64,000 nt of DNA, taken from NCBI RefSeq assembly GCF_041508025.1, contig NZ_CP165719.1, positions 736,023-800,022 on the forward strand, in the 5' to 3' direction. Positions 29,110-38,013 of this stretch are shown in pieces. The stretch is from Candidatus Uabimicrobium helgolandensis. GTDB taxonomy: Bacteria; Planctomycetota; Uabimicrobiia; Uabimicrobiales; Uabimicrobiaceae. Position 1 is the first letter of the stretch. Each line of letters begins with the position of its first letter. Position numbers and translations under genes: made by a program. The notes below the pieces were generated by a model. It saw only the letters and a program-made list of their open reading frames with translations. It was not told where the DNA came from and did no database searches.

Positions 29110-29358
29110 GGGCGTGTCATCATTCAAAATATTGTGTGTTTTTTCGAGCCCGAGCCCGTTTGCGAAACTTTCACTAACAATTTATCAAAGAAGCAAAGTT
29201 TCTTTTTCCATCGCAAAAAACTAGTATTGAACCAATAAATCACTTTCTGTCGCTCTCAAAAAGTTTTCGGACGCGGGCTCGCAAACGGGCTCAATACTAC
29301 TGGCGTATCATTAAATGAATCCGTTATATTTTTATCTGTATTGAATGATGACAGGCCC
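29110..29358 (-). mobile_element. MITE copy A (inverted orientation, about 249 bp, internal 12-bp deletion)
   Basis: Its terminal inverted repeats are gggcgtgtcatcattcaa…ttgaatgatgacaggccc. The interior is the reverse complement of copies B and C. Confidence 0.85.
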
Positions 29359-29445
29359 TAAATGTTTGCGATGTAACAAAATAACTTTTTTAGTTGGGGT
29401 AACCTCATAATTACACAATTATGAGATCGTACCCATTTAGATAAA

Positions 29446-30039
29446 CTACGCCATATAAATAGTAAGACCAATAGAAACAAATACAGAGCTAACTAAACCA
29501 ACAACTGCCATAACACTTGAAGAGTTTAATTTTCTTTGTGTGCTTCTCTCTAAGTTTTCGCATACTTGTGGAAGAATTTTGTAATTTTGATACAAAATAA
29601 TGGGGGATATCACAAAGGAAAGTCCGTAAACCAGAGACATATAGCCTAATTTGTAATTTTTTTCGGCTACCGCTTTAATAGAGTCATAGTCGCGCAGTAA
29701 ATCTTCGTCTTTTATTTGCTTGCCGTTACTTTCTTTTAAGAGATTAGTGTATCTTTTGTAAACAGAGCATTCTTTGCCTTCATACACTAATTGTAAACAA
29801 ATAGGACACTCTTTTTCTGTTATTTCTTGTTTTTCCAGCTCTATTGCTTCAAGCGAAGGATCAGCTTCTGGCAAAGGTAAAGCAGTTAGTTTCGTAGGCT
29901 GAGGAACTCCAAGAGTTAATGTAGCTAGGCACCTTGGACATTTGATTTTTTTCCCATAAAAATTATCAGGGACACTCTTTCTGTAAGAGCAGAATGGACA
30001 ATCAAAAGGAATAGACATTGCGATTACCTTTATATTCAT
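29446..30039 (-). CDS. Double zinc-ribbon membrane protein (hypothetical)
   Basis: CPFC…CPRC and CPIC…C pairs are present, with two C-terminal TM helices. Confidence 0.55.
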   Translation of the reverse strand: MNIKVIAMSIPFDCPFCSYRKSVPDNFYGKKIKCPRCLATLTLGVPQPTKLTALPLPEADPSLEAIELEKQEITEKECPICLQLVYEGKECSVYKRYTNLLKESNGKQIKDEDLLRDYDSIKAVAEKNYKLGYMSLVYGLSFVISPIILYQNYKILPQVCENLERSTQRKLNSSSVMAVVGLVSSVFVSIGLTIYMA

Positions 30040-30138
30040 TTAAATTTTTTATACATAAGGCATGCAAAAGAAATCTCTTTTTACATGCTTAAAACGATAA
30101 AAATAGAGTCTAGGCTCCATTGCGAATGTTATAAAATG

Positions 30139-30786
30139 CTAGGTAAACAGTTCATCTTGTTCGCCAGCTAATTTTCTTTTTACTGTCGACCAACTATGCC
30201 GAATATAATCAGGAAGAGGTGGTTTGCTTTGACATAGTTTTTGAATAAATTTTTGGGTTTTGGCGTCGGAAGGATAACCAGAACCAAAATCTCCAAATTT
30301 TTTGCGTAGTTTTTCTATTTCATCGTCTCTTTTTACTTTTGCGAGAATACTAGCTGCAGCAACAACAGGATAATTATCATCTGCATGATTTTCAGCAACA
30401 ATACATATTTGACGTTCGTTTAGTAATTTCTCAAGTTGTTCTTTAAATTTATGACCTCCTCTTCCAGGAGCATCAATGTAAACAACATCAGGATACCTTC
30501 TTTTTATAAGTTCTACAGCGACTTCTGCTTCTAAAACATTTAAACGTTTTTTTAAACAGTACTCATCTATTTTAGGAGGGGGAACTACGATAATTTCTGT
30601 TCCAAGTGCTATATCTTTAATTTCATCTACCAAAGCTTCGCGCTTTTTTTGAGTAAGCTTTTTGGAATCTTTGACACCGCATTTTAAAAGTTTATCCCAA
30701 CTTTTTTGTGTAACCATTACTGCGGCCAGTACCATGGGACCTATAACACACCCGCGGCCAGCTTCATCTATACCTAAAATTTTCAT
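30139..30786 (-). CDS. rnhB: Ribonuclease HII
   Basis: The N-terminal MKILGIDEAGRGCVIGPMV, including the catalytic DEAGRG motif, matches RNase HII. Confidence 0.9.
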   Translation of the reverse strand: MKILGIDEAGRGCVIGPMVLAAVMVTQKSWDKLLKCGVKDSKKLTQKKREALVDEIKDIALGTEIIVVPPPKIDEYCLKKRLNVLEAEVAVELIKRRYPDVVYIDAPGRGGHKFKEQLEKLLNERQICIVAENHADDNYPVVAAASILAKVKRDDEIEKLRKKFGDFGSGYPSDAKTQKFIQKLCQSKPPLPDYIRHSWSTVKRKLAGEQDELFT

Positions 30787-31108
30787 TGTAATATGGCGAG
30801 GATGTTCCCGAAGGGAATGCCAATATGTTCTTCATCGTAAATGTTTGCCCCGCACTTCCTTTCTGCATCTTAGAACTTTTGATTGACAAAACATCACTTT
30901 TTGCGTCGATACGTCCTAATAAGTATATAAAAAAGTTTCTTAGTATTCAACATGGTTTCCCACTGTTGCTCACAACTTCAGTATCACAGGCTTAAAACGA
31001 GAAACTAGATTTGTAATTATTTATCGTTTTATCGAAAATTAACTATCGTTCCGACGATTTTACTTTGTAATTTGTTACTAGACATACCGTTTTAGATCTT
31101 TTTCATAA

Positions 31109-36048: not shown

Positions 36049-36055
36049 TACGGGC

Positions 36056-36130
36056 CGGGGTGTAGCTCAGCTTGGCTAGAGTACTTGGTTTGGGACCAAG
36101 GGGTCGCTGGTTCGAATCCAGTCACCCCGA
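36056..36130 (+). tRNA. tRNA-Pro (anticodon UGG)
   Basis: It folds as a cloverleaf by hand. The acceptor stem is CGGGGTG/CACCCCG. The D-arm is GCTCAGCTTGGCTAGAGT. The anticodon stem is CTTGG/CCAAG with loop TTTGGGA. The T-arm is GCTGGTTCGAATCCAGT. The discriminator is A, and no CCA is encoded. Confidence 0.9.
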
Positions 36131-36137
36131 TACTATA

Positions 36138-37616
36138 ATGAAACATTTCTATAAAAACACAAAAAACTTCCGCAAAAACACAGAAGCATTATCCTCATAC
36201 ATTATACATCAACGTTGGTATCGAGGGAAATCACAATCCAACCACAACATTTCTATCGATGATGTTATTGAAATTGCAAATGAACAATATATTTTTATTG
36301 TAACGGCAAACAATTCTATAAAACATAAATACATTCTTTTTCTAATTCTCTCTGAACAAAAACAACAAAATTCTATGTTTAATTTATATATAGATAATAA
36401 ACAATTATTTGTTTATGATGGATGTCAAAATGAGGAATATTGTAATAATCTGTGGAACATAATACAATTTCCAGATACATATCGTAATTTGAGTAGCTTT
36501 ATTATTCATCAAAATTTAGATCTCTCAATTAACAACTCAAAACTGCAAGATATTGAGCAGAGCAATACGAACATCATCTATGATGATCGCTTGTTACTCA
36601 AAATATTTAGGCAACCTCAACCTGGCACCAATCCTGATTTAGAAATAAATGTCTTTTTAAGCGAACAAGGTTTTTGTCACGTACCAAAAACAGTCGCTGC
36701 TATTCGTTATACATCAGACAGTGGTAAAATTTTCGATATTGCTATTGTCCAAGAATTAGTGAAAAACGCTAAAGATTGCTGGGAGCATACCGTCGATTTA
36801 GCAAGTAAGTTTTTAGTCCAAAATCGCGAAGAAAATTTAGCACAACGTTCGATTTTTAGCAGTTTAAAAACAATACCAAGCACAATGGAGTTATCCGCTA
36901 ATTTTGCCAAATTACTAGGGCAACGAACAGCCGAACTTCACCTAGCACTTACTAATACTAATGACAATGCTGATTTCACGCCATCAAAAATCGATAATCT
37001 TTATTTACTAAATCTATATAAAGGTTTTTGTGGTATATTGCAAGAGGTTGTCGATACATTAGAGAATAGTGATATGAGGACTAATCACAATGTCATTAAA
37101 TTTCTTGAGGCAAAGAATTATCTACAAACGCACTTTGAATCGTTGACAACGATAAAAACAGAGGGATTCCGTATTCGCTGCCATGGAGACTATCATCTTG
37201 GACAAATTTTAAAGTTAGAAACAGACATTGTTATTCTAGACTTTGAAGGCGAACCACTTCGTCCCATAGAAGAAAGGCGCCAAAAACAATCTCCTTTTAA
37301 AGATGTAGCAGGAATGATTCGTTCTTTTAACTATGCTGGATTTAAAGCCGCCATGGATTTAGGAACTACAGATATCTCTCGTGCAAACTATTGGGGGAAT
37401 ATTGTTTCCACAACATTTTTAAGTGAATACCTGAAAGTCGCTGAAAGTGGAAAGTTTTTATCGCAGAATAAACAACAACAAAGAGTTCTACTACAATTAT
37501 TCTTGTTTGATAAAGCTCTTTATGAATTGAAATATGAATTGAACAATCGCCCTGACTGGGTTCATATACCACTATCTGGTATAATCTCATTATTAAATGA
37601 TGTCATCGAAAAATAA
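36138..37616 (+). CDS. Maltokinase-like (Mak/Pep2 family) APH-fold kinase
   Basis: The C-terminal catalytic motifs RCHGDYHLGQIL and ILDFEGEP match maltokinase. The ATG lies 7 nt after the tRNA 3' end, so the longer ORF start at 36072 overlaps the tRNA and was rejected. Confidence 0.65.
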   Translation: MKHFYKNTKNFRKNTEALSSYIIHQRWYRGKSQSNHNISIDDVIEIANEQYIFIVTANNSIKHKYILFLILSEQKQQNSMFNLYIDNKQLFVYDGCQNEEYCNNLWNIIQFPDTYRNLSSFIIHQNLDLSINNSKLQDIEQSNTNIIYDDRLLLKIFRQPQPGTNPDLEINVFLSEQGFCHVPKTVAAIRYTSDSGKIFDIAIVQELVKNAKDCWEHTVDLASKFLVQNREENLAQRSIFSSLKTIPSTMELSANFAKLLGQRTAELHLALTNTNDNADFTPSKIDNLYLLNLYKGFCGILQEVVDTLENSDMRTNHNVIKFLEAKNYLQTHFESLTTIKTEGFRIRCHGDYHLGQILKLETDIVILDFEGEPLRPIEERRQKQSPFKDVAGMIRSFNYAGFKAAMDLGTTDISRANYWGNIVSTTFLSEYLKVAESGKFLSQNKQQQRVLLQLFLFDKALYELKYELNNRPDWVHIPLSGIISLLNDVIEK

Positions 37617-37748
37617 TTAGTTTTACCTAGCTCAACAAACAATTGAGTTCTCAGAAGCTTTACTTCAAGTATTCGTATATTAAAGACCTCGACTTCAGTA
37701 CCTAAATACATTCAGTGGTACAATTTTTGGTTGAATGCCCTTAAATTA

Positions 37749-38013
37749 GGGCGTGTCATCATTCAATACAGATAAAAATATAACGGATTCATTTAATGAT
37801 ACGCCAGTAGTATTGAGCCCGAGCCCGTTTGCGAGCCCGCGCCCGAAAACTTTTTGAGAGCGACAGAAAGTGATTTATTGGTTCAATACTAGTTTTTTGC
37901 GATGGAAAAAGAAACTTTGCTTCTTTGATAAATTGTTAGTGAAAGTTTCGGAAACGGGCTCGCAAATGGGCTCGGGCTCGAAAACACACAATATTTTGAA
38001 TGATGACACGCCC
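37749..38013 (+). mobile_element. MITE copy C (265 bp)
   Basis: It has the same TIRs and interior as copy B and lies in direct orientation relative to B. Confidence 0.9.

Follow-up and report, generated by a model that had tools for sequence, protein, structure and literature searches.

Three intergenic repeats in Candidatus Uabimicrobium helgolandensis are probably copies of one non-coding miniature transposable element with IS427-group-type ends

The 64,000-nucleotide stretch of the Candidatus Uabimicrobium helgolandensis genome analyzed here (contig NZ_CP165719.1, positions 736,023 to 800,022 of the forward strand; hereafter "the window", to which all coordinates refer) contains three near-identical repeats, designated copies A, B and C, which are all intergenic and lie within 9 kb of each other. 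Overall, our data make it very probable that these repeats are copies of one non-coding miniature inverted-repeat transposable element (MITE) with ends of the type found in the IS427 group of IS5-family insertion sequences (ISs), which was moved in trans and inserted after the host lineage had split from its sequenced relatives. The host is Ca. Uabimicrobium sp. HlEnr_7, a strain for which the name 'Ca. U. helgolandensis' has been published (PMC11481906).

An earlier note on this DNA, made from the sequence without database searches, had described three near-identical elements with 19-bp terminal inverted repeats (TIRs), an internal 25-bp inverted repeat and a predicted long-hairpin fold. All three elements were recovered at the positions it gave (Table 1), and its anatomical description needed correction in two details, i.e., the TIRs are perfect over 18 bp only (the two ends disagree at base 19, with T in one and A in the other), and the internal 25-bp inverted repeat is present in imperfect form, with one mismatch in copy C and three in copy B, and is approx. 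39 bp long at 82-87% identity. Folding of the whole unit yielded the predicted long hairpin, closed by the TIRs and the internal repeat, for the element as DNA (-52.6 kcal/mol; z = -6.9) as well as RNA (-100.9 kcal/mol; z = -8.9); this strong fold is due to the TIRs together with the internal inverted repeat. With sizes of 249, 267 and 265 bp and with TIRs at their ends, the three copies fall within the range typical of MITEs (roughly 50-500 bp).

The terminal 18-mer of the element, GGGCGTGTCATCATTCAA, was found six times in the window when up to one mismatch was allowed, as compared to 0.05 occurrences expected from dinucleotide shuffles, and a count of six was reached in 0 of 100 shuffles. 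Copies B and C are 98.5% identical, the only differences being two substitutions and a 2-bp indel. Copy A, on the other hand, shows 92% identity to copy B, carries internal deletions of 6 and 12 bp and has a single TIR substitution (the end reads GGGCCTGTC...); by these deletions and this substitution it looks like the oldest of the three. Homology among the copies ends sharply at the TIR edges and the flanking DNA is unrelated, which indicates that the copies arose by transposition and not by segmental duplication, an origin that the unrelated flanks exclude for copies B and C.

The element has no coding capacity, as the longest six-frame piece inside it does not exceed 48 amino acids (aa), and its joined six-frame peptides found no match among 5.8 billion proteins, a search that is uninformative on copy number. 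A search of the region against Rfam detected no family above threshold for the element; only the tRNA was found, plus a meaningless sub-threshold miRNA match. As the earlier note had stated, no transposase is encoded in the window: open reading frames (ORFs) of at least 150 aa did not match any transposase family, and tblastn of an IS427-group transposase against the window found nothing.

TA dinucleotides adjoin five of the six ends of the three copies. The TA target duplication that the earlier note had considered possible is thus seen as TA/TA at copies A and C, while copy B shows TA/TG; we counted this as the target-site duplication that characterizes a MITE. To extend the comparison beyond the window, ends with the 13-nt TIR core were collected from all loci examined, and 48 of these 58 ends were preceded by TA. 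Eight of the ten exceptions represent chance matches in coding sequence, which leaves 50 genuine ends of this TIR class, 48 of them with TA. The base at position -3 was C in 36 of the 48 TA-flanked ends, and no target signal other than (C)TA was apparent over the 48 ends. The TA flanks, together with the C at -3, indicate that this TIR family prefers CTAG yet duplicates TA only. A 4-bp CTAG duplication, as made by the IS5 group, was excluded, since flanks in this family such as GTA...TAA, TTA...TAG and CTA...TAC agree over TA only.

Insertion after divergence from the sequenced relatives was assessed with two loci that were retrieved through orthologues of the maltokinase-like kinase encoded between copies B and C, i.e., an assembly resembling U. 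amorphum (L036; Mak 63% identical) and a metagenome contig (L037; 61%). A protein encoded on a 9.32-Mb contig of Ca. Uabimicrobium sp. HlEnr_7 matches the product of this kinase ORF (36138-37616) at 100% identity; compared to the family TIGR02457 ("putative maltokinase") the ORF scored 326 bits, which is under the family cut-off of 375. The window, L036 and L037 have a common gene order, with genes for a methyltransferase, a hypothetical protein, RNase HII and a Band 7 protein on one strand and BNR, hypothetical protein(s), tRNA-Pro(UGG), mak, dsbD and radical SAM on the other. The element is absent from the spacers corresponding to copies A, B and C in both L036 and L037, where these spacers measure 91 and 32 bp (A site), 116 and 136 bp (B site) and 158 and 179 bp (C site), respectively. 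The search for empty sites in relatives that the earlier note had proposed therefore found, between species, two syntenic loci with all three spacers free of the element.

The block comprising the promoter-like site, tRNA-Pro and the mak start is 97% identical across the window, L036 and L037. In a further, more distant locus (L053; Mak 42% identical), the 3' half of the same tRNA directly precedes mak, which is followed by a DUF547 gene, dsbD and radical SAM. The conserved order and block in L036, L037 and L053 indicate that the tRNA-Pro-mak unit is old and vertically inherited. On these sequence comparisons, tRNA-Pro-mak is ancestral at this locus and came to be bracketed by two independent insertions. 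The promoter that the earlier note had placed in this segment is present as a promoter-like match; it is ancestral as well and is not carried by the element.

Of the two families that the earlier note had named for testing, IS630/Tc1-mariner and IS5, the latter was borne out, specifically its IS427 group. Comparison of the ends supports an IS5-family, IS427-group parent of the TIRs and makes IS630/Tc1-mariner less likely, because the ends match those of full-length IS427-group ISs, all of which are flanked by (C)TA. The agreement between the TIR and these full-length ISs ranges from 15 of 17 to 17 of 18 bases, with the first 13 nt identical in all. One of them, ISPssp5 (IS5/IS427, 837 bp, right inverted repeat GGGCGTGTCATCAATTA, direct repeat TA; Table 1 of PMC6514802), is carried by plasmid pP32BP2 of Psychrobacter sp. 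DAB_AL32B (PMC6514802) and was reached through a literature text match to a 12-mer of the TIR; the remaining matches were unrelated papers, mostly on animal and viral systems. The right inverted repeat of ISPssp5 agrees with GGGCGTGTCATCATTCA of the window element at 15 of 17 bases, including the first 13, and the 2-bp TA repeat is the same; however, ISPssp5 is autonomous, with a length of 837 bp and a transposase encoded by two overlapping ORFs, whereas the window element is non-coding and only 249-267 bp long.

A 30-nt TIR query against 72,556 plasmids identified elements in Acinetobacter and Acidovorax, while a BLAST search of the same kind of database, i.e., plasmids, with the whole 270-bp unit gave no match. 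Plasmid pALWED3.6 of Acinetobacter lwoffii (L039) contains an 813-bp IS with the TIR GGGCGTGTCATCAATTAA (16 of 18 bases) and flanks cTA...TAg, whose two overlapping ORFs with DUF4096 and DDE_Tnp_1/DDE_Tnp_1_2 domains represent IS427-group architecture. The Acidovorax plasmid contains a decayed IS427-like element ending in TGGCGTGTCATCATTCAAGG. A protein search seeded with this remnant, followed by contig look-ups, led to an 871-bp IS on metagenome contigs (L048-L052), which has the TIRs GGGCGTGTCATCAATCGA and GGGCGTGTCATCAATCAA (the latter matching the MITE TIR at 17 of 18 bases), encodes DUF4096 and DDE_Tnp_1 ORFs and occupies five different TA-flanked insertion sites. The 871-bp and 813-bp ISs resemble the window element in their TIRs and (C)TA flanks, but are autonomous and reside in hosts unrelated to Planctomycetota; only the TIR is common to the window element and the IS427-group elements. 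More distant relatives in this group (ISLpl3, ISAba31, ISPam4 and others) also have ends that begin with GGG directly after TA. The window element thus combines TIR homology to the IS427 group with a 2-bp TA duplication, in a group that gives duplications of 2-4 bp. A Tn3-type miniature element (Tn3-derived inverted-repeat miniature element, TIME) was also considered and was rejected, as elements of that type require a GGGG end of 38 bp and duplicate 5 bp.

As a separate observation, the Acidovorax element (L038 3003-4640; Acidovorax sp. DW039 plasmid pACDW039_1) consists of an IS5-group element (329-aa transposase, CTAG duplication) nested in the decayed, internally deleted IS427-like element, and the CTAG used by the nested element lies within the RYDK-coding part of the latter. 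This arrangement is a possible intermediate between an IS and a MITE.

Outside Uabimicrobium, a scan of a genome collection with the 18-mer found at least 35 loci. Among the 35 matches listed, eight were chance matches inside coding sequence (peptide GRVIIQ) without a TA flank, while the other 27 represent TA-flanked non-coding elements with identical ends and unrelated interiors. Those in Burkholderiales include a 267-bp family (L007, L014, L023, L024, L034, L035) and 50-bp minis that consist of two abutting TIRs (L009, L011); metagenome-assembled genomes (MAGs) of Cyanobacteriota contain elements of 124-139 bp (L004, L005, L017, L032), and a Brocadiia MAG contains a 149-bp element inside which contigs break, implying a high copy number. 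The exact TIR is also seen at L021 and L033 and at the contig ends L001, L003, L015, L028 and L029, and a contig of an unclassified bacterium with 36% G+C is likewise among the matches. None of the matches listed showed a transposase adjoining the exact 18-bp end. Among these matches, the MITEs of Burkholderiales, Cyanobacteriota and Brocadiia are like the window element in their exact 18-bp ends, TA flanks and lack of coding capacity, and they occur in many copies per genome; their interiors, on the other hand, are unlike those of the window element and of one another, with only 18-20 nt that align. Judged from these alignments, they are probably sister families with one common transposase-recognition end, and not one element.

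A broader claim, i.e., that the exact end GGGCGTGTCATCATTCAA defines a MITE superfamily across phyla (Planctomycetota, Pseudomonadota and Cyanobacteriota) with unrelated interiors, appears rather unlikely to us. If it were true, such MITEs would survive on transposases borrowed from IS427-group elements, the ends of which depart from theirs by 1-3 bases, or, alternatively, would mark an unsampled transposase moving between phyla; in addition, the family could be abundant in Uabimicrobium and could add to its unusually large 9.3-Mb genome. The occurrence of one exact 18-bp end on unrelated MITEs in at least three phyla is of modest interest for transposon biologists.

Under the mechanism that we propose, the 18-bp ends would serve as binding and cleavage sites of an IS5-family, IS427-group DDE transposase, with DUF4096 as its N-terminal part and DDE_Tnp_1 as its catalytic part, which are usually encoded by two overlapping ORFs joined by frameshifting. 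This transposase would be encoded elsewhere, act in trans and either excise or copy the element, which would then insert at a TA dinucleotide and duplicate it; CTAG is preferred by the family at large, and the insertions here would have used A+T-rich spacers. The three insertions would have occurred into separate intergenic spacers of a conserved neighbourhood after the lineage split from its sequenced relatives, and copies B and C may be recent insertions or may have been homogenized by gene conversion. We infer mobilization in trans, the presence of a cognate transposase in the host genome, when and in which order the insertions took place, and whatever influence they have on expression. In its ends, its target duplication and the way in which it would be mobilized, the element follows what is already known for the IS427 group, and no new mechanism is involved.

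Four observations weigh against this interpretation. Copy B has TA on one side only; its TG flank would represent a point mutation after insertion. L036 and L037 belong to different species and their spacers no longer align, so that the comparison demonstrates absence of the element but not a base-precise empty site. Moreover, no full-length IS with the exact ...ATTCAA end was found among the 72,556 plasmids, in two motif-anchored metagenome scans or among viral contigs, the best agreement being 17 of 18 bases. The metagenome scans used a pattern of the TIR, a gap (37-67 or 68-98) and the reverse-complemented ATRYDK motif, and both patterns had matched the positive controls L039 and L038 beforehand; the viral contigs were searched with the TIR, with the TIR plus motif and with the internal repeat, and none of these gave a match. 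Finally, IS630/Tc1-mariner elements also duplicate TA, and the duplication alone can therefore not separate the two families.

A MITE derived from IS630/Tc1-mariner and moved by a DDE_3 transposase targeting TA would fit the TA flanks and the (C)TA(G) context, as the target of IS630 is CTAG. Yet DUF4096 and DDE_Tnp_1, the mark of IS5/IS427, are encoded by all full-length elements that were recovered with this type of TIR; none of these is an IS630-family DDE_3 element, and no IS630-type gene adjoins an end of this type in any of 53 loci. In addition, ISPssp5, with the same TIR core and TA duplication, has been classed as IS5/IS427 (PMC6514802), and we consider an IS630 origin highly improbable. 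A somewhat less improbable alternative, to which we nevertheless give little credence, is that the repeats are structured elements selected by the host (RNA hairpins acting as terminators, processing sites or stabilizers), with transposon-like ends that are incidental or long domesticated. The very stable RNA fold, the intergenic location of all copies, the placement of copy A in an apparent operon spacer and one hybrid promoter-like match that faces outward from the right end of copy C (37996-38023; -35 TTGAAT in the right TIR, -10 TAAAAT in the flank, directed towards dsbD, 9 of 12 bases) would be consistent with such a role. However, the TIRs and the internal inverted repeat would produce a strong fold in any case, the TIRs themselves correspond to the ends of active ISs, no Rfam match was obtained, and promoter-like and terminator-like matches are no more common in the region than in shuffles; the absence of the element at these sites in relatives also indicates that no conserved function is attached to it.

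The earlier note had further proposed that copies B and C and the DNA between them form a composite mobile cassette or, alternatively, that they mark a tRNA-targeted insertion hotspot. Near-identical direct copies do surround a 2.0-kb segment, both outer flanks are TA, and the outermost TIRs could in principle be used by a transposase to bring in tRNA-Pro and mak together; the outer TA flanks are uninformative, though, because every copy has TA. A composite transposon carries a segment foreign to the locus, whereas tRNA-Pro-mak-dsbD is in place in L036, L037 and L053: the promoter-tRNA-Pro-mak block occupies the same position without the element in L036 and L037, within an unchanged order from the hypothetical gene to radical SAM, and tRNA-Pro stands before mak, with dsbD and radical SAM beyond, even at 42% Mak identity. 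A hotspot aimed at the tRNA is contradicted by the distances of the copies from it (copy B 289 bp upstream, copy C 1.6 kb downstream and copy A 6.7 kb away) and by a target signal that is limited to (C)TA. Neither version of this proposal could be upheld, and we regard it as extremely improbable; separate insertions of one MITE into a pre-existing gene neighbourhood account for the same arrangement.

Table 1. Coordinates of the MITE copies, their flanks and internal repeats, and the features of the tRNA-Pro-mak segment in the window
Feature	Position	Strand	Remarks
MITE copy A	29110..29358	-	249 bp; inverted relative to copies B and C; located between the stop of a 197-aa ORF (29446-30039, minus) and the start of a methyltransferase ORF (28273-29031, minus)
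MITE copy B	35500..35766	+	267 bp; perfect 18-bp TIRs 35500-35517 and 35749-35766; located between a 224-aa ORF (34809-35483) and the tRNA-Pro promoter
MITE copy C	37749..38013	+	265 bp; perfect 18-bp TIRs 37749-37766 and 37996-38013; located between the mak stop (37616) and the dsbD start (38451)
TA flank of copy A	29108..29109	.	Partner TA 29359-29360; putative 2-bp target-site duplication
TA flank of copy B	35498..35499	.	Opposite side 35767-35768 is TG; duplication imperfect
TA flank of copy C	37747..37748	.	Partner TA 38014-38015
Internal imperfect inverted repeat of copy B, left arm	35566..35604	+	GAGCCC-like hexamers; pairs with 35693-35730
Internal inverted repeat of copy B, right arm	35693..35730	+	
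Internal inverted repeat of copy C, both arms	37815-37853 and 37942-37979		
Sigma-70-like promoter match, TTGATT-16-TATAAT	36021..36048	+	7 nt upstream of tRNA-Pro; outside the element; kept in element-free relatives
tRNA-Pro(UGG)	36056..36130	+	Outside the element; ancestral neighbour of mak
Maltokinase-like (Mak/Pep2-type) kinase gene	36138..37616	+	Outside the element

The junction between the tRNA and mak was also noteworthy in its own right. The mak start codon follows the end of tRNA-Pro(UGG) by 7 nt, and the corresponding blocks are located at 36021-36140 in the window, 9853-10023 in L036, 9919-10089 in L037 and 1-51 in L053. Together with the conservation of the block and the persistence of the junction at 42% Mak identity, this spacing points to an ancient tRNA-mRNA co-transcript, in which processing of the tRNA would leave the mak mRNA with hardly any leader.

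The spacers that contain copies B and C are long even if the MITEs are disregarded. Minus the MITE, the spacer between the hypothetical gene and the tRNA (35767-36000) measures 305 bp, as compared to 116 and 136 bp in L036 and L037, and the mak-dsbD spacer (38014-38450) measures 569 bp, as compared to 158 and 179 bp. These MITE-free spacers are thus 2-3 times as long as those of the relatives, and nothing similar to the additional sequence was seen elsewhere in the window or in the retrieved loci. The mak-dsbD spacer of L036 (approx. 11545-11580) contains a mini inverted repeat of approx. 30 bp, AGGGTGTCATCAATCAAAGTGACACACCTA, in which 14 consecutive nt are identical to the IS427-type TIR of L048; we estimate that approx. 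3e-4 such matches would be expected by chance over 39 kb. The repeat resembles two ends in decay, which hints that TIRs of this class may once have been active in the sister species. The remnant was rejected as a homologue of copy C, as it is located on the other side of a conserved TT(T/G)AC(C/G)GACTAAT motif when the spacers are read by eye.

Among previously described bacterial repeats, the Correia elements (Correia repeat enclosed elements, CREE) of Neisseria and IS630-derived MITEs such as RUP are likewise approx. 100-270 bp long, bounded by TIRs, associated with a TA duplication, intergenic and hairpin-forming when transcribed. They are unlike the window element in their TIR sequences and in their parents (unknown for Correia elements and IS630 for RUP), the TIR in the window being of the IS427-group type. 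The earlier note had referred to the repeats as an undescribed MITE family; the searchable literature yielded no earlier account of this element, although its TIR class has been published for ISPssp5 (PMC6514802). As far as the searchable literature shows, the annotation given here is the first of a mobile element in Uabimicrobium, a genus of planctomycetes with a phagocytosis-like, bacterium-engulfing way of life. The 18-bp end together with TA provides a marker for locating further copies and the responsible transposase. As direct repeats located 2.2 kb apart, copies B and C could also delete tRNA-Pro(UGG) and mak by homologous recombination.

Apart from the MITE, the window contains three sets of tandem repeats. 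Units of 81 bp are located at 9128-9532, inside an ORF (3274-9813) that encodes a 2179-aa Ser/Thr-kinase/WD40 protein, while the spacer that follows the prolyl-tRNA synthetase gene on its downstream side contains units of 33-35 bp (19780-19985). The third set (43119-43294) consists of irregular units of 15, 36 and 51 bp inside the kinase gene at 41775-43826.

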